Of a DNA stretch of 64,000 nucleotides, positions 3,576-62,996 are shown in pieces (the stretch's first letter is position 1; every line of letters begins with the position of its first letter). The stretch is from sequence record NC_047754.1; one strand, 5' to 3'. This stretch comes from Escherichia phage phiAPCEc03. Under the pieces are notes generated by a model, which was not told where the DNA came from, ran no database searches, and was given only the letters and a program-made list of their open reading frames with translations. A program made the position numbers and the translations under genes.

Positions 3576-4970
3576 ATGTCTTTACAACTATTACGTAATA
3601 CTCGAATCTTCGTGTCTACGGTTAAGACCGGTCACAATAAGACCAACACGCAAGAGATTCTAGTTCAGGATGATATTTCTTGGGGTCAGGACAGTAACTC
3701 AACAGATATTACTGTTAATGAAGCTGGTCCGCGTCCAACTCGTGGTTCTAAACGTTTTAATGACTCTTTAAACGCAGCTGAGTGGAGTTTCTCTACTTAT
3801 ATCCTGCCGTATAAAGATAAAAATACTAACAAACAAATTGTTCCTGACTATATGTTATGGCATGCACTTTCTAGTGGTAAAGCCCTTAACCTGGAAGGTG
3901 ATACAGGGGCACACAATAACGAAGCTAACTTTATGGTTAACTTCAAAGATAACTCCTATCATGAGTTAGCAATGTTACATATTTATATTCTGACTGATAA
4001 AGCATGGAGTTATATCGATTCCTGTCAGATTAATCAGGCAGAAGTTAACGTTGATATCGAAGATATTGGCCGTGTAACTTGGTCTGGTAATGGTAATCAG
4101 CTTATTCCTCTGGATAAGCAACCATTTGACCCAGATAAATTAGGTATTGATGATGAAACTTATATGACTATCCAGAGTTCTTATATTAAGAACAAACTTA
4201 CTATCCTGAAAATTAAGGATATGGATTCTGGTAAAGCATATGATATTCCTATTACTGGTGGTACTTTCACTATTAATAACAACATCACGTACCTAACCCC
4301 GAATATTATGTCCCGTGTAAATATTCCGATCGGTTCATTTACTGGTGCATTTGAACTAACTGGTTCATTAACTGCTTATCTGAATGATAAATTTCTTGGT
4401 TCTATGGAGCTGTACAAAGATCTTATCAAAACTCTGAAGGTAGTTAACCGCTTCGAAATTGCTCTAGTACTTGGTGGTGAATACAAGGAAGAACGTCCTG
4501 CGGCTATTCTGGTAGCTAAACAAGCACACGTTAATATTCCTACTATTGAAACTGATGATGTACTTGGTACTTCAGTAGAGTTTAAAGCTATTCCATCTGA
4601 TCTGGATGCTGGTGATGAAGGTTACTTAGGCTTCTCTAGTAAATATACCAAAACAACTATTAATAACTTGATTGTTAATGGTGATGGTGCTACTAATGCT
4701 GTAACCGCAATTACTGTTAAATCTGCTGGTGATGCTACTACAGTAAACAACTCGGCTACTCTTCAAATGAGTGTTGAAGTTACTCCTTCTCCCGCAAAGA
4801 ATAAGGAAGTTACTTGGGCTATCACTGCCGGTGATGCAGCTACTATCAGTGCAACCGGACTGTTGACAGCAGATGCTAGTAAAACTGGTGCAGTTACTGT
4901 GAAAGCTACTGCTAAAGATGGTTCTGGAGTTAAAGGTACTAAACAGATTACTGTAACAGCAGGTGGCTAA
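3576..4970 (+). CDS. Tail tube protein with C-terminal Ig-like domain (T5 pb6-like)
   Basis: 464 aa, matching pb6 size as recalled; C-terminus (VTAITVKSAGDATTVNNSATLQMSVEVTPSPA...VTVKATAKDGSG) is Ig/BIG2-like; SD AGGAGA upstream. Confidence 0.85.
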   Translation: MSLQLLRNTRIFVSTVKTGHNKTNTQEILVQDDISWGQDSNSTDITVNEAGPRPTRGSKRFNDSLNAAEWSFSTYILPYKDKNTNKQIVPDYMLWHALSSGKALNLEGDTGAHNNEANFMVNFKDNSYHELAMLHIYILTDKAWSYIDSCQINQAEVNVDIEDIGRVTWSGNGNQLIPLDKQPFDPDKLGIDDETYMTIQSSYIKNKLTILKIKDMDSGKAYDIPITGGTFTINNNITYLTPNIMSRVNIPIGSFTGAFELTGSLTAYLNDKFLGSMELYKDLIKTLKVVNRFEIALVLGGEYKEERPAAILVAKQAHVNIPTIETDDVLGTSVEFKAIPSDLDAGDEGYLGFSSKYTKTTINNLIVNGDGATNAVTAITVKSAGDATTVNNSATLQMSVEVTPSPAKNKEVTWAITAGDAATISATGLLTADASKTGAVTVKATAKDGSGVKGTKQITVTAGG

Positions 4971-4974
4971 TTAA

Positions 4975-5874
4975 ATGTACTACTCTCTAATGAGAGAGTC
5001 AAAAGTTATAGTTGAGTATGATGGTAGGGCATTTCATTTTGATGCCCTATCAAACTATGATATACAGACTTCCTACGAGGAATTCAAGACTCTTCGTAGG
5101 ACTGTTCATCGTAGAACTAACTATGCAGACTCTATTATAAATGCTCAAACTCCCTCTTCTATCTCTCTAGCAGTAAATTTCAGCAATACTCTTACTGAGG
5201 CTAACTTCTTTGAATGGTTAGGTTTTGATAGAAAAGGTAATACTTTCTTACTCCCACTATATAGTAATAATATTGAACCTATTATGTTCAATATCTATAT
5301 AGTAAACAAAGATAATAACTGTGTATATTTTGAAAACTGCTATGTATCTACAGTAGATTTTTCTTTAGATAAGAATATACCAATTCTTAATGTTGGTATT
5401 GAGTCTGGGAAATTCTCAGAAGTATCTACCTATAGAGAAGCCGCTTCTATTATACAGGGTGAAGTAATGTCTTACAGCCCAGTAATAGCTTCTACTAATG
5501 GCAGCATCTTACCCGGTCTTATTTCTGCCTCTTTATCTTTCCAACAGCAGTGCTCCTGGAGAGAGGATAAGAGTGTTTTTGATATAAATAAAATTTATAA
5601 TAATAAAAGAGCCTATGTAACTGAAATGAATGCTTCGGCAACCCTTTCTCTGTATTACTTAAAACGTTTTGCAGGAGATATGGTTTATAATATAGAACCG
5701 GAGATAGATGTACCTTTAACGATAAGAAATAATAATATTTCTATAGATTTTCCTTCAGCACGTATTACAAAACGCCTAGATTTCTCAGATGTGTATAGAG
5801 TTGAGTGGGATATTATACCTACTGCCTCCTCAGACCCAGTGAGAATAGATTTCTTTGGAGAAATTAAAAAATGA
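4975..5874 (+). CDS. Hypothetical tail-associated protein
   Basis: 299 aa ORF between tail tube and chaperone genes; AT-rich relative to neighbours. Confidence 0.4.
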   Translation: MYYSLMRESKVIVEYDGRAFHFDALSNYDIQTSYEEFKTLRRTVHRRTNYADSIINAQTPSSISLAVNFSNTLTEANFFEWLGFDRKGNTFLLPLYSNNIEPIMFNIYIVNKDNNCVYFENCYVSTVDFSLDKNIPILNVGIESGKFSEVSTYREAASIIQGEVMSYSPVIASTNGSILPGLISASLSFQQQCSWREDKSVFDINKIYNNKRAYVTEMNASATLSLYYLKRFAGDMVYNIEPEIDVPLTIRNNNISIDFPSARITKRLDFSDVYRVEWDIIPTASSDPVRIDFFGEIKK

Positions 5875-6275
5875 TTAATTTAAAAGATATTACTCTTGAT
5901 ACTCGTACTATTACTCTTTCCTACCCAGGTATGCCGAACTTTAAACTAGAACTTAACTATATGTCTCGTGCTACCTCTAAACGTGTTATTTCTTCTGCTA
6001 AACGCGATGAATGGGTTAACGGTACTTTGGTTCAGGTACAGGATGATGATAAGTTCATTGAAGCCTTCGTTGATGCTGCGATTAAAGGTTGGACTGGTTT
6101 GACTGTTGGTGACGTTGAAAAACTGATGCTGATTGAAACAGATGCTGATCCTGAGACTGAAGTTCCTTTTAGTCGCGATAATGCTGTAATGCTTATGCAG
6201 AACTCTTCTGCGTTTGATTCCTGGATCAACCAGACAGTGTTCCACTTAGACACTTTTCGTAGCTCAAAAGCGTAA
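5871..6275 (+). CDS. Tail assembly chaperone (G-like)
   Basis: 134 aa ORF upstream of the tape measure gene; start overlaps upstream stop (ATGA). Confidence 0.45.
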   Translation: MINLKDITLDTRTITLSYPGMPNFKLELNYMSRATSKRVISSAKRDEWVNGTLVQVQDDDKFIEAFVDAAIKGWTGLTVGDVEKLMLIETDADPETEVPFSRDNAVMLMQNSSAFDSWINQTVFHLDTFRSSKA

Positions 6276-6336
6276 AGAGTTACTAGATGCTGTTGCTGAT
6301 TTTGCAGACAAATGTATTAAAAGCTCAGCATCTAAA

Positions 6337-6705
6337 ATGACTAAACAACAATATTTAATACTTTGCGAGTCAATGGGTATAGAGCCTGATCCTAAGGCTA
6401 TGCCCGTTGAACTTGAGGATTTTCCACCTATTGTAGCTATTAGTATGAATATTTATAATAGTCTAGTTGACTGTTTCATACCTGGTGACTTCCCTATCTT
6501 TATAGGTAAAGACAAAGCTGCTTTAGGTGTTTTATTTGATATTTATGGGATTACTGATCCTATAGAAAAAGAATTTGTTCTACACATTATCAATATATTT
6601 GATGCTAAAGCTGTAGACGCTGCACGTAAACGTGCTGAGAAGCATAAGCCGCAAAACGGTAGAATACCTAACGTTAAGCCGCACGCCAGATCTCGAGCAC
6701 GGTAA
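6337..6705 (+). CDS. Tail assembly chaperone, second ORF (possible frameshift extension, frame open from 6250)
   Basis: 122 aa ORF with no SD; its frame is open back to 6250 and overlaps the end of 5871..6275 by 26 nt. Confidence 0.4.
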   Translation: MTKQQYLILCESMGIEPDPKAMPVELEDFPPIVAISMNIYNSLVDCFIPGDFPIFIGKDKAALGVLFDIYGITDPIEKEFVLHIINIFDAKAVDAARKRAEKHKPQNGRIPNVKPHARSRAR

Positions 6706-6740
6706 AAGTTTCCTCCAATGGGCGTTCCACGATGAGGCTT

Positions 6741-6771
6741 GGCTCTGGGTGATTTGCCCAGAGCCTTTTTT
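6741..6771 (+). terminator. Rho-independent terminator
   Basis: Hairpin GGCTCTGGG-TGATTTG-CCCAGAGCC followed by TTTTTT. Confidence 0.8.
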
Positions 6772-6788
6772 ATTGGGAAAAATAAAAT

Positions 6789-9700
6789 ATGACTGATAAG
6801 CTAATACGAGAATTACTAATAGACGTTAAACAGAAGGGGGCAACCCGTACTGCAAAGTCTATTGAAAACGTATCTGATGCATTAGAAAATGCTGCTGCTG
6901 CTTCCGAACTGACAAATGAACAGTTAGGTAAAATGCCCAAAACTCTATATTCCATTGAGAGGGCAGCAGATAGAGCAGCGAAAAGTCTTACTAAAATGCA
7001 AGCTAGCAGAGGTATGCTTAGTATTACTAAATCTATTAATGATATAGGAGCTAAGTTAGATGATCTCGCTATTACAATGATTGAAGTAGCAGATAAATTA
7101 GAAGTCGGATTTGATGGAGTTTCTAGATCTGTTAAAACAATGGGCAATGATGTTGCAGCTGCAACAGAGAAGGTTCAAGATAGGTTATATGATACTAATA
7201 GGGCTTTAGGAGGTACGGCTAAAGGCTTTAATGATACTACTGGTGCTGCTGGTAGAGCTTCTAGAGCTATTGGTAATACTTCTGGTTCAGCACGTGGTGC
7301 AACTCGTGATTTTGCAGCAATGGCTAAAATTGGTGGTAGTTTACCTATTATGTACGCAGCTCTTGCTTCCAATATCTTCGTTCTGCAATCCGCGTTCGAA
7401 CAACTTAAACTAGGTGATCAGTTAAATCGTCTAGAAAAATTTGGTGTTATAGTAGGTACTCAGACTGGTACTCCTGTTCAGTCTCTTGCTAGATCACTAC
7501 AAGAAGCTGCCGGGTATGCTATCTCCTTTGAAGAAGCAATGAGACAAGCATCCTCAGCGTCCGCTTATGGCTTTGATGCCGAACAACTTAATAAATTTGG
7601 TTTAGTAGCTCGTCGTGCTGCTGCTGTTCTTGGTGTTGATATGACTGATGCACTTAACCGTGTAATTAGGGGCGTATCTAAACAAGAAATCGAACTTCTG
7701 GATGAACTTGGTGTCACCATCCGTCTTAATGACGCATACGCTGATTATGTTAAACAGTTAAATGCTGCAAACACAGGTATAACATATAATGTTAATAGTC
7801 TTACCACTTTCCAGAAACAACAAGCATACGCTAACGCGGTAATTGCTGAATCTACTAAGCGGTTTGGCTACCTAGATGAAGTACTACGTGCAACTCCATG
7901 GGAGCAATTTGCTGCTAATGCAGATGCTGCACTAAGAAAAATACAACAAGCTGCTGCTAAGTATTTAGGGCCAGTAATTGATGCTATCAACACAGTATTT
8001 TATACATCTCAGGCTTCTATATCTGCTGAGGCAGCTAGAGCTCAAGAAAAAACTAATAGACAGATAGACCCTACCAACGTTGGTGCTGTTGCTTTAAGTT
8101 TAGCTGCTTCTGAAGAAGGCTATAATAAAGCTCTAGATATGTATAAGGAATCTCTTGATAAGCGTAATAAGCTAAAATCTGAGTTCGATAAACGAATGGA
8201 ACAAGCAGATTTCTATACAAAACTAGCTATACGTCAAGTTGGTGAAGGTATTCCTGTTGGTCTTGCAGCAGCAGGTGCTTCGGAGGCCAATAAGCAATTT
8301 GTAGCAGAAACTGCAGCTATGGGTTTACAAGTAACTAGACTTGGTAAAGAAGTAGAGGATTCTACTGAAAACCTCAATGCTTGGAAATCAGCGTATCAAG
8401 CTGCTGGAGCTGCTGCTGCAAAAGCTAACCCCGAGTTTCAGAAGCAAATTAATCTACAGAGAGATACTACTGATCCTGATGCTGTATACGATTTTAACTC
8501 TACTGTATTAAAAGGACTAACTGAGCAGCAGAAAGCGTACAATCAGACTAAGAAAACTGCTAGTGACTTAGCTAATGATATACAGAACGTTGCTCAGAAT
8601 ACAGATACTGCTGCTAAAACTAGTACTACGTTAGCAGATGCTATAAAAAACATAGAATCTCTATCTCTAGGTACGGGTAAAAGTGCAGATGAGTATGTTA
8701 AAAATCTTAATTTAGGCTATAATACGTTATCTGAGATGAAAACTGCTTCTCAGGCCTTGTCCGAGTATGTTAAACTAACTGGTAATGAAACTAAAAATCA
8801 GTTAGCAGTTCAACAGAAAATAGCCGATGTGTATAATCAAACTAAGGATAAGGAAAAGGCTCAGGAAGCTGGTAGACGTTTAGAGTTGCAACAGTTAGAA
8901 GAGCAAGAAGCTGCTTTACGCCGTGTTCTTCAAACAAACCAGGGAAATAAAGCTGTTGAGAAAGAAATTGAAAAAATTCAGCTGGAGAAACTTAAACTTA
9001 CCAATCAGGGTATGGAGGCCCAGAAGAAGATTAAGGATTATACAGATAAAATCCTGGGTGTAGATCGTGAGATAGCTCTTCTGAATGACCGCACTATGAC
9101 TACTACTCAATATAGATTAGCTCAGCTAAAACTAGAACTAACTATAGAGAAAGAGAAGTACGAATGGTATACAAAACAAGCGGACAAACAGAAAGAGGCA
9201 GAACAGTCTAGACGTGCTCAAGCACAAATAAGCAGAGAAATATGGGAAGCGGAGAAACAGGCAACTGCCTCACATGTATCAGCTCTCATGGATGCGCTAG
9301 AGGTCAGCCAAACGCAGAGGAATGTTACTGGTCAATCTCAAATTCTTACTGAAAGATTATCCATTCTGCAGCAACAGCTGGAGCTGTCTAAGGGCAATAC
9401 TGAGGAAGAAATTAAATATCGTAATGAGATTTATAAAACTTCGGCGGCCTTAGAGCAGCTTAGAAAACAGAGAGATATCCAGATGCAGCAACAGGTGGGA
9501 TCTTCTGTAGGTGCTGTATATACTCCTACAACTGGACTATCTGGGGAGGATAAAGATTTTGCTGATATGCAAAATAGAATGGCTTCTTATGATCAGGCAA
9601 TCTCTAAACTATCTGAATTAAATTCTGAAGCAACCGCTGTGGCTCAAAGTATGGGTAACTTAACTAACGCTATGATTCAGTTCTCTCAGGGATCCCTAGA

Positions 9701-10469
9701 TACTACCTCCTTGATTGCTTCTGGCATGCAAACTGTATCTTCTATGATTCAGTATAGTACTAGTCAACAGGTTAGTGCAATTGATCAGGCTATTGCAGCA
9801 GAACAGAAACGTGATGGTAAATCAGAAGCATCTAAAGCTAAGTTGAAGAAGTTGGAAGCTGAAAAGCTGAAGATTCAACAAGACGCAGCTAAGAAGCAGA
9901 TTATCATCCAAACTGCAGTAGCTGTAATGCAAGCGGCAACAGCTGTACCATACCCGTTCTCTATTCCTTTAATGGTTGCGGCAGGTTTAGCGGGTGCATT
10001 GGCGTTAGCACAAGCATCTTCTGCATCTGGTATGTCAAGTATTGCTGATTCTGGGGCGGATACAACTAGTTACTTAACCTTAGGAGAGCGTCAGAAGAAT
10101 ATAGATGTGTCCATGTCTGCTAATGCAGGTGAACTATCTTATATTCGTGGCGATCAAGGTATAGGTAGTGCCAACTCTTTCGTTCCTCGTGCTGAGGGTG
10201 GTAATATGTATCCAGGGGTTAGCTATCAAATGGGTGAGCATGGTACAGAAGTAGTTACCCCTATGGTTCCTATGAAAGCTACACCTAATGATGAGCTAAA
10301 AACCTCGTCTAACTCAACTTCAGGAAGACCTATCATCCTGAATATTAGTGCTATGGATGCTGCAAGTTTTAGAGAGTTTGCTTCTAGTAATAGTGGTGCT
10401 CTAAGAGACGCGGTAGAATTAGCTCTGAATGAGAACGGTGCTAGTCTGAAAACATTAGGAAATTCTTAA
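6789..10469 (+). CDS. Tail tape measure protein (T5 pb2-like)
   Basis: 1226 aa, long Ala/Gln/Glu-rich coiled-coil stretches, hydrophobic segment near residue 1050 (AVPYPFSIPLMVAAGLAGALALA); position before Dit and hub. Confidence 0.9.
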   Translation: MTDKLIRELLIDVKQKGATRTAKSIENVSDALENAAAASELTNEQLGKMPKTLYSIERAADRAAKSLTKMQASRGMLSITKSINDIGAKLDDLAITMIEVADKLEVGFDGVSRSVKTMGNDVAAATEKVQDRLYDTNRALGGTAKGFNDTTGAAGRASRAIGNTSGSARGATRDFAAMAKIGGSLPIMYAALASNIFVLQSAFEQLKLGDQLNRLEKFGVIVGTQTGTPVQSLARSLQEAAGYAISFEEAMRQASSASAYGFDAEQLNKFGLVARRAAAVLGVDMTDALNRVIRGVSKQEIELLDELGVTIRLNDAYADYVKQLNAANTGITYNVNSLTTFQKQQAYANAVIAESTKRFGYLDEVLRATPWEQFAANADAALRKIQQAAAKYLGPVIDAINTVFYTSQASISAEAARAQEKTNRQIDPTNVGAVALSLAASEEGYNKALDMYKESLDKRNKLKSEFDKRMEQADFYTKLAIRQVGEGIPVGLAAAGASEANKQFVAETAAMGLQVTRLGKEVEDSTENLNAWKSAYQAAGAAAAKANPEFQKQINLQRDTTDPDAVYDFNSTVLKGLTEQQKAYNQTKKTASDLANDIQNVAQNTDTAAKTSTTLADAIKNIESLSLGTGKSADEYVKNLNLGYNTLSEMKTASQALSEYVKLTGNETKNQLAVQQKIADVYNQTKDKEKAQEAGRRLELQQLEEQEAALRRVLQTNQGNKAVEKEIEKIQLEKLKLTNQGMEAQKKIKDYTDKILGVDREIALLNDRTMTTTQYRLAQLKLELTIEKEKYEWYTKQADKQKEAEQSRRAQAQISREIWEAEKQATASHVSALMDALEVSQTQRNVTGQSQILTERLSILQQQLELSKGNTEEEIKYRNEIYKTSAALEQLRKQRDIQMQQQVGSSVGAVYTPTTGLSGEDKDFADMQNRMASYDQAISKLSELNSEATAVAQSMGNLTNAMIQFSQGSLDTTSLIASGMQTVSSMIQYSTSQQVSAIDQAIAAEQKRDGKSEASKAKLKKLEAEKLKIQQDAAKKQIIIQTAVAVMQAATAVPYPFSIPLMVAAGLAGALALAQASSASGMSSIADSGADTTSYLTLGERQKNIDVSMSANAGELSYIRGDQGIGSANSFVPRAEGGNMYPGVSYQMGEHGTEVVTPMVPMKATPNDELKTSSNSTSGRPIILNISAMDAASFREFASSNSGALRDAVELALNENGASLKTLGNS

Positions 10470-62921: not shown

Positions 62922-62996
62922 CGGGGTGTAGTCTAAGGGAGAGGCAGGAGTCTTCTAAATTCCTTTATGCAGGTTCGAATCCTGTCACCTCGGCCA
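62922..62996 (+). tRNA. tRNA-Arg (anticodon UCU), CCA encoded
   Basis: Hand-folded cloverleaf: acceptor CGGGGTG/CACCTCG (one G-U), U8, D-stem GTCT/AGGC, anticodon stem GGAGT/ATTCC with loop CT-TCT-AA, T-arm GCAGG-TTCGAAT-CCTGT, discriminator G then CCA. Confidence 0.7.

Follow-up and report, generated by a model that had tools for sequence, protein, structure and literature searches.

A predicted +1 ribosomal frameshift at a conserved UUU_CGN site would join the two tail assembly chaperone genes of T5-like phages

Comparison of related genomes indicates that the genes for the G-like and T-like tail assembly chaperones of a T5-like phage are very probably joined by a +1 programmed frameshift at positions 6255-6258 of the DNA analysed here, a stretch of 64,000 nucleotides (nt) of Escherichia phage phiAPCEc03 (NC_047754.1), referred to below as the window. 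The G-T frameshift is conserved in long-tailed double-stranded DNA phages (Levin, Hendrix & Casjens 1993; Xu, Hendrix & Duda 2004; summarised in PMC5009743). In phage lambda the ratio of G to GT is 30:1, G binds the tape measure protein, T recruits the tube protein, and neither is present in the final virion (PMC5009743). As in lambda, the window has two small open reading frames (ORFs) positioned after the major tail gene and before the tape measure gene; no start signals are found for the second, whose frame overlaps the 3' end of the first, and a longer fusion made at low level is predicted. Unlike lambda, in which the shift is -1, the window and the rest of the T5 clade need a shift of +1 and are without an X_XXY_YYZ heptamer, a UUU_CGN sequence being conserved instead. 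The initial annotation of the window had raised the possibility of a lambda G/GT-like pair joined by a +1 (or -2) frameshift, and a +1 frameshift of this kind now has strong comparative support.

ORF1 (5871..6275; + strand, as are all features of the gene pair given below) encodes a G-like tail assembly chaperone of 134 amino acids (aa), homologous to T5.143, and ends with a TAA stop codon at 6273-6275. ORF2 as annotated (6337..6705) encodes a T-like domain of 122 aa from the ATG at 6337 and is the homologue of T5.142. The distance between the two starts (6337-5871) is 466, which equals 1 mod 3, so that a shift of +1 or -2 is needed to pass from ORF1 to the frame of ORF2. In the +1 frame a TAG is present at 6247-6249; the frame then stays open from 6250 as far as 6705, and its first 26 nt (6250..6275) coincide with the end of ORF1. 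The -1 frame of the window closes after 7 codons. The direction of the shift, the opening of the frame at 6250, the 26-nt overlap and the position of the ORF1 stop had all been given correctly in the initial annotation.

Start signals were scored as the predicted pairing of the 17 nt ending 3 nt before a start codon with the tail of the 16S rRNA, the anti-Shine-Dalgarno (anti-SD) sequence. The pairing is -6.4 kcal/mol for ORF1. At the ATG at 6337 it is -0.1 kcal/mol and at the ATG at 6373 it is -1.8 kcal/mol, compared with -4.2 to -9.1 kcal/mol in ten neighbouring late genes. By these energies no SD sequence precedes either ATG, in line with what had been noted earlier for position 6337. The +1 frame between 6250 and 6336 contains no ATG, GTG or TTG, and the earliest candidate start is the ATG at 6337. 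The second ORF is thus found to overlap the first and to be devoid of an initiation signal. The 134-aa protein of ORF1 would be the product of standard decoding.

Both ORFs belong to the tail assembly chaperone family. ORF1 is aligned to positions 12-141 of the 258 in phrog_313, 'Tail assembly chaperone' (E=6e-34). The open +1 frame (6250-6702) matches phrog_3914 with E=1e-56 and also positions 170-258 of phrog_313, the two ORFs mapping to the N- and C-terminal halves of this one 258-position profile. The predicted fusion, join(5871..6257, 6259..6705), extends over 5871..6705 and has 129 + 148 = 277 aa. A single uninterrupted match to phrog_313 pairs its residues 1-262 with profile positions 12-258 of 258 (E=1e-53), and the score of 183.5 bits is the sum of those of the two halves. 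Since the match is a single stretch, the profile describes one polypeptide, which is encoded by the window in two frames. A profile that spans both ORFs also means that the database must contain members in which the whole length is one polypeptide, whether through an annotated join or a natural fusion. No in-frame fusion was seen among 146 T-domain cluster representatives. As a separate observation, a 1455-aa protein of the representative library (P0006) matched the T domain in 8 separate stretches.

Pfam and NCBIfam gave no match for the two window proteins, and the predicted fusion, used as query against a large protein database, had no match at E<=0.001. A profile search of the PDB returned a single weak match to a designed protein, which was treated as noise. 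The single-sequence AlphaFold model of ORF1, with a predicted local distance difference test (pLDDT) value of 37, was too poor for use. A spiral structure of the G-like chaperone fold was reportedly described by Pell and colleagues in 2013. ORF1 homologues in two metagenomic loci, L079 (836-1252) and L080 (834-1238), match the Pfam family PF27119 (Phage_YdaY); the ORF1 of the window has no match to it at E<=0.1.

In the T5 reference, T5.143 (134 aa) and T5.142 (122 aa) are two annotated genes, both named 'tail assembly chaperone', that stand 61 nt apart. The public records examined, which were taken from roughly 900 matching ones, likewise contain two separate coding sequences (CDSs) each time, never joined, and label 6276-6336 as intergenic. 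The start assigned to ORF2 varies between these records and is the equivalent of the ATG at 6337, the equivalent of the ATG at 6373, or a TTG or GTG within the overlap. In the predicted fusion the same region forms most of a linker, VAQKRKELLDAVADFADKCIKSSASK (6259..6336), which lacks a start codon and would be read as protein in the +1 frame.

Variation in the linker was studied in an ungapped alignment of 31 distinct Tequintavirus and Epseptimavirus sequences. Among the 61 nt of 6276-6336, 21 columns vary, and with reference to the +1 frame 5 of them fall at codon position 1, a single one at position 2 and 15 at position 3 (binomial P=4e-4). This pattern agrees with that of ORF1 (26/4/88) and ORF2 (18/12/74). 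Single-base differences from the window were then counted in the same 31 sequences plus phiR2-01. Read in the +1 frame, the substitutions in 6276-6336 are 19 synonymous versus 12 non-synonymous, and in each of the other two frames they are 3 versus 28. The random expectation is 22% synonymous, and the excess in the +1 frame has P=2.5e-6. At 6322-6324 a Ser codon switches from AGC to TCA. None of the compared sequences carries a stop codon in the +1 frame of the linker, and the peptide itself is identical in 26 of the 31 sequences. The 17 positions shared with the end of ORF1, 6259-6275, contain 1 variable column among the 31 distinct relatives. In farther relatives it is the protein sequence of the linker that is conserved, with an amphipathic stretch leading into a YxxxCE motif. 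Judged from these substitution patterns, the 'intergenic' 61 nt are under protein-coding selection in the +1 frame. As the linker is without a start codon, it could be translated only by ribosomes arriving from ORF1. The junction peptide of the predicted fusion would be DNAVMLMQNSSAFDSWINQTVFHLDTFVAQK (...HLDTF-VAQK), and a predicted tryptic peptide, ELLDAVADFADK, is encoded by 6277-6312, 5' of every start codon.

The arrangement was compared in 46 T5-clade loci, comprising the window, 13 annotated loci, 27 close relatives from IMG/VR and 5 IMG/VR loci near Cetovirus and Novosibvirus; scans with single Vibrio and Proteus proteins as queries contributed few loci. The annotated loci represent Tequintavirus, Epseptimavirus, Enterobacter phage KKP_3711, Pantoea phage AAS21, Sugarlandvirus, Pogseptimavirus, Cetovirus, Novosibvirus and two further Vibrio phage groups, and reach down to ~28-30% identity in ORF1. 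Four extra metagenomic lineages (L075, L076, L078 and L080) were found via the T domain. In all 46 loci ORF2 lies in the +1 frame, which is open backwards over the ORF1 stop by 14-122 nt. Frame relation and overlap are kept over at least 11 genus-level lineages, plus the four metagenomic ones. The smallest overlaps, 14 nt in Vibrio phage D378 (AAC AAC TTT CGT TAA) and 17 nt in L078, contain little besides the shift motif. From these comparisons the +1 overlap arrangement is judged to exceed chance, and the conservation of the overlap, which had been named earlier as a check on the frameshift, holds throughout the clade. Two of the close relatives from IMG/VR, L016 and L039, have lost the upstream TAG, so that their +1 frame extends 86 nt 5' of the ORF1 stop; a TTG is present at -59 and the shift motif is intact.

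Within the overlap, the proposed +1 shift site is TTT_CGT (UUU_CGU in the mRNA) at 6255..6260. The sequence TTTCG is found in phase inside the overlap at all 46 T5-clade loci and at L075, L076, L078 and L080, so that a shift-prone site is conserved within the overlap across relatives. In the T5 clade TTT is preceded by ACT, AAC, ACC, ACG or TTG and followed by CGT or CGA. The contexts in the four metagenomic lineages are ACC TTT CGA, AAC TTT CGC TAA, CTT TTT CGA and CGA TTT CGA. An in-phase UUU_CGN with a +1 extension ORF is hence seen with CGT, CGA and CGC, and what all overlaps share is essentially a preceding codon, TTT and CGN. At the protein level, the Phe129 and Arg130 encoded by this sequence are two of the eleven invariant residues of ORF1 and its last conserved ones; the 0-8 residues after Arg130 differ in length and sequence. 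Elsewhere in both genes, over 11 lineages, Phe is encoded by TTT 66 times and by TTC 71 times, and Arg by CGN 73 times and by AGR 42 times. At F115, another invariant Phe of ORF1, both TTT and TTC are in use. If the lineages are independent at silent sites, a constant TTT would arise by chance with a probability of ~3e-4 and a constant CGN with ~7e-3.

Uncultured sister lineages were found to carry the same gene pair in a canonical form. This sister clade consists of 25 loci from the IMG/VR scan and 1 from a later scan, some of them on ~100 kb contigs, and its ORF1 shows 34-41% identity. In 26 of 26 loci the ORF2 homologue lies in the -1 frame (tblastn frames 1 and 3), with an overlap of 28-58 nt. 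An in-phase X_XXY_YYZ heptamer is present within the overlap in every case, G_GGA_AAC in 15 loci and A_AAU_UUU in 11. Two further loci, L079 and L082, also have the ORF2 homologue in the -1 frame, with the heptamer A_AAU_UUU. The (AAC) TTT of the T5 clade has its homologue in the Asn-Phe codons over which the sister-clade heptamers extend. When the fusions predicted from -1 shifts at the heptamers are aligned with those from a +1 shift at TTT_C, no gap falls at the junction. The window itself has no canonical -1 heptamer for the pair and requires +1. As far as sequence comparison can tell, this shows a genuine frameshift pair that is homologous to canonical -1 pairs, and a predicted shift direction that has changed in the T5 clade with place and product kept. 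A further metagenomic relative, L083 (278-329), also has its ORF2 in the -1 frame, but no X_XXY_YYZ heptamer occurs in the overlap (TCA GTT TTC AAC AAA GAC TCA TAG).

The following mechanism is proposed. Most ribosomes would translate ORF1, terminate at 6273-6275 and yield the 134-aa G-like chaperone. In a minority of them, the peptidyl-tRNA-Phe (anticodon GAA) paired with UUU at 6255-6257 would slip +1 onto UUC at 6256-6258. The CGU that is normally read next would then be skipped, GUA would be read at 6259-6261, and the +1 frame would be followed to 6705 to give the 277-aa G-T fusion. The re-pairing of tRNA-Phe from UUU to UUC is the sole cognate re-pairing available in every lineage. The frequency of the slip would set the ratio of G to GT. 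By analogy with lambda, the G part would bind the tape measure protein (pb2 homologue), the T part would recruit the tail tube protein (pb6 homologue), and neither chaperone part would remain in the virion. The tape measure protein is presumed, on the same analogy, to be the client of the chaperones, and the tube protein to be the partner of the T domain. The efficiency is expected to be low, a few percent, like the 30:1 ratio of lambda, because no stimulatory element was found and CGU is not rare in these genes. We infer the slip itself, its forward direction (UUU to UUC), its efficiency and the functions of the proteins.

Several points weigh against a +1 shift at this site. All of the support comes from sequence comparison. 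In these genes CGT encodes Arg more often than any other codon (38/115), and no obvious A-site pause is therefore expected in enterobacterial phages; judged by codon counts, the A-site CGN would be neither slow nor rare. No conserved downstream RNA structure was detected when the 70 nt 3' of the site were folded for 11 lineages, the predicted structures being inconsistent between them (z from -2.7 to +1.4). By-eye inspection of the 30 nt before the site revealed no SD-like upstream stimulator, and the shift region has no Rfam match. The conserved G after UUU_C could perhaps be held by both frames, as part of Arg in ORF1 and of Val or Glu in ORF2, rather than as a signal. Finally, according to a genome announcement citing Zivanovic et al. 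2014, the tape measure chaperone of T5 is without a predicted frameshift signal (PMC6256483).

This last statement fits the view that ORF1 and ORF2 encode two separate proteins with no recoding, ORF2 being started at one of its ATGs (6337 or 6373) through leaderless-like or SD-independent initiation or through coupled re-initiation after ORF1, and the overlap having no function. The two separate CDSs in every public record examined agree with it, as does the Met at the 6337-equivalent position, which is common among relatives, is chosen by gene callers and makes additional independent initiation of ORF2 possible. We nevertheless regard two unlinked products as improbable. The coding constraint runs through 6276-6336, 5' of both ATGs and in a region with no start codon, and ORF2 is not preceded by an SD. 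Other genera have Ile, Val, Leu or Phe where the window has its Met at 6337, and the first ATG of Klebsiella phage Shiner, Vibrio phage PG07 and Vibrio phage D51 falls within the conserved YxxxCE motif. Moreover, all of the 46 loci have a +1 frame that extends without a stop into ORF1, and canonical -1 heptamers occupy the same place in the sister lineages. ORF2 is unlikely to be translated from a start of its own.

If a frameshift is accepted, it might take place elsewhere in the overlap. The initial annotation had pointed to TCA AAA GCG TAA, in which tRNA-Lys could slip from AAA (6267-6269) to AAG or the stop codon could stimulate a shift at GCG_UAA, and had also considered a hungry codon. 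Re-pairing of tRNA-Lys would be cognate, and AAA_G is kept in 31/31 Tequintavirus and Epseptimavirus sequences, but it is missing in phiR2-01, Vibrio phages Ceto, PG07 and D51 and Proteus phage RP7. The whole sequence reads CCA AAG TCG TAA in phiR2-01 and ACA AAA TAA in KKP_3711, it has no counterpart in the Vibrio, Proteus and Pantoea phages, and in D378 and L076 ORF1 stops directly after the CGN codon. A slip at GCG_UAA would move from GCG to CGU, which is not a cognate re-pairing. TTT_CGN lies five codons 5' of the stop in the window, and stop-codon stimulation is therefore excluded for it; among the loci the stop lies 0-13 codons past CGN and never adjoins UUU. A hungry codon is rejected in the case of CGU, since no other Arg codon is as frequent in these genes. 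A variant would be a -2 shift elsewhere in 6250-6275, and a -2 shift has been reported for the G/T genes of phage Mu (cited in bioRxiv 10.1101/2025.10.02.679949). Such a shift would place tRNA-Phe on CUU, ACU or CCU, which are neither cognate nor conserved. Together, these other ribosomal shifts are considered highly improbable. The fusion could also be made by RNA polymerase instead of the ribosome, through slippage of -2 nt or +1 nt in the T-run, four T being present in the window at 6254-6257 (ACTTTTCGT). In most lineages just three T are found (AACTTTCG, ACCTTTCG, ACGTTTCG), and the heptamers of the sister lineages are classical ribosomal ones. Known transcriptional slippage sites need much longer homopolymers. 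There is hardly any likelihood that polymerase slippage is the source of the fusion.

The predicted +1 slip at UUU_C can be set beside several known systems. The -1 sites of the sister lineages are close to those described earlier: G_GGA_AAC is one base apart from the G_GGA_AAG of lambda and is the reported G-T shift site of the archaeal virus HCTV-1 (PMC5009743). Non-canonical directions have also been described for G-T pairs. The shift is -2 in phage Mu (bioRxiv 10.1101/2025.10.02.679949) and likely +1 in the archaeal virus HSTV-2 (PMC5009743), and ~350 'forward' tail assembly chaperone frameshifts are annotated in SEA-PHAGES genomes. In all of these, as in the window, the second chaperone ORF is in the +1/-2 frame; they differ in that they belong to other phage groups and hosts, the T5 group being absent from them in the literature searched, and no described motif matching UUU_CGN was found for them.

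The UUU_Y sequence is a +1 shift-prone site in bacteria, including the one that gives the YopN-TyeA fusion of Yersinia (PMC5009743). That case resembles the window in having UUU in the P site followed by a pyrimidine, enterobacterial translation, and adjacent ORFs joined into a functional low-level hybrid, which is a prediction here. YopN-TyeA is, however, a cellular type III secretion gene pair, and the site of the window lies in a phage tail gene and is conserved across a virus family. UUU in the P site also raises frameshifting in an E. coli cell-free system (bioRxiv 10.1101/2025.10.02.679949). The same core is used by eukaryotic viruses: UCC_UUU_CGU is the +1 cassette of influenza A PA-X (PMC5009743) and UUU_CGN is the +1 motif of plant amalgaviruses (PMC5052127); for motifs of this kind see also PMC3498833. 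The UUU_CGN core and the shift direction are identical to those proposed for the window. In contrast, PA-X and the amalgaviruses depend on eukaryotic ribosomes, for which CGN is rare, and the window has a bacterial host and a common CGU; the E-site codon is ACU, AAC, ACC, ACG or UUG in the window and its relatives and not the UCC of PA-X. The E. coli prfB gene, which encodes release factor 2 (RF2), likewise relies on a +1 slip of the P-site tRNA onto an overlapping cognate codon. At prfB an in-frame stop in the A site and an SD-like stimulator a few nt upstream are needed, whereas in the window the stop is five codons downstream and no SD-like sequence was recognised by eye in the 30 nt upstream, so that the site is not of the prfB type.

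No report of a +1 recoding site was found in the literature on T5, T5-like phages, Tequintavirus or Demerecviridae. What would be new here is a T5-group G/GT pair with a predicted +1 slip at UUU_C; G/GT frameshifts and non-canonical directions were already known. A more tentative suggestion, to which we give a rather modest chance, is that UUU_CGN as a whole acts as a ribosome-intrinsic +1 cassette on bacterial ribosomes too, and that the family switched from -1 (A_AAU_UUU/G_GGA_AAC) to +1 at the same Phe codon.

The surroundings of the gene pair are those of T5. Megablast of 5600-6900 matched 444 phage records, every one of them T5-like, and the closest matches are Tequintavirus with 96-97% identity. 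The genes are ordered as major capsid, head-tail connector genes, tail tube, baseplate-tube, ORF1, ORF2 and tape measure, the same as in T5, and the chaperone pair thus lies between the tube gene and the tape measure gene. The gene for the major tail tube protein, the pb6 homologue of 464 aa, is at 3576..4970 (+ strand; ORF list and synteny with T5.145). It is followed by the baseplate-tube protein gene at 4975-5874 (Pfam Baseplate_Tube_p140). The tape measure protein gene, encoding the pb2 homologue of 1226 aa, is at 6789..10469 (+ strand; phrog_3779, Pfam TMP_N and TMP_C). In the interval between the chaperone pair and the tape measure gene, a terminator-like hairpin with an 11-bp stem and a T-run is present at 6741..6775 (+ strand). 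A counterpart of it is annotated in T5 and in phage Lindwurm, and it is part of the context, outside the recoding signal. T5 carries an HNH endonuclease gene, T5.141, inserted immediately 5' of the tape measure gene; the window is without it. Salmonella phage GSW6 (L074, 1-802) has a small deletion immediately 5' of the ORF1 ATG, which brings the baseplate-tube gene into frame with ORF1 and creates a single CDS of ~433 aa; this fusion is probably a sequencing or assembly error. The sole tRNA gene of the window is a tRNA-Arg with anticodon TCT at 62922-62996, presumably the edge of the phage tRNA cluster.

Among model phages T5 is a classic, and its tail structure has been studied in detail. 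If the predicted frameshift is true, the 277-aa fusion would correct the annotation of the whole family Demerecviridae, and the apparent exception of T5 to the near-universal G-T frameshift of long-tailed phages would disappear. It would also provide a tractable E. coli system for the UUU_CGN +1 motif, which has so far been studied in eukaryotic viruses. The paired -1 and +1 lineages would constitute a natural experiment, in which the direction of recoding changes and the product stays.

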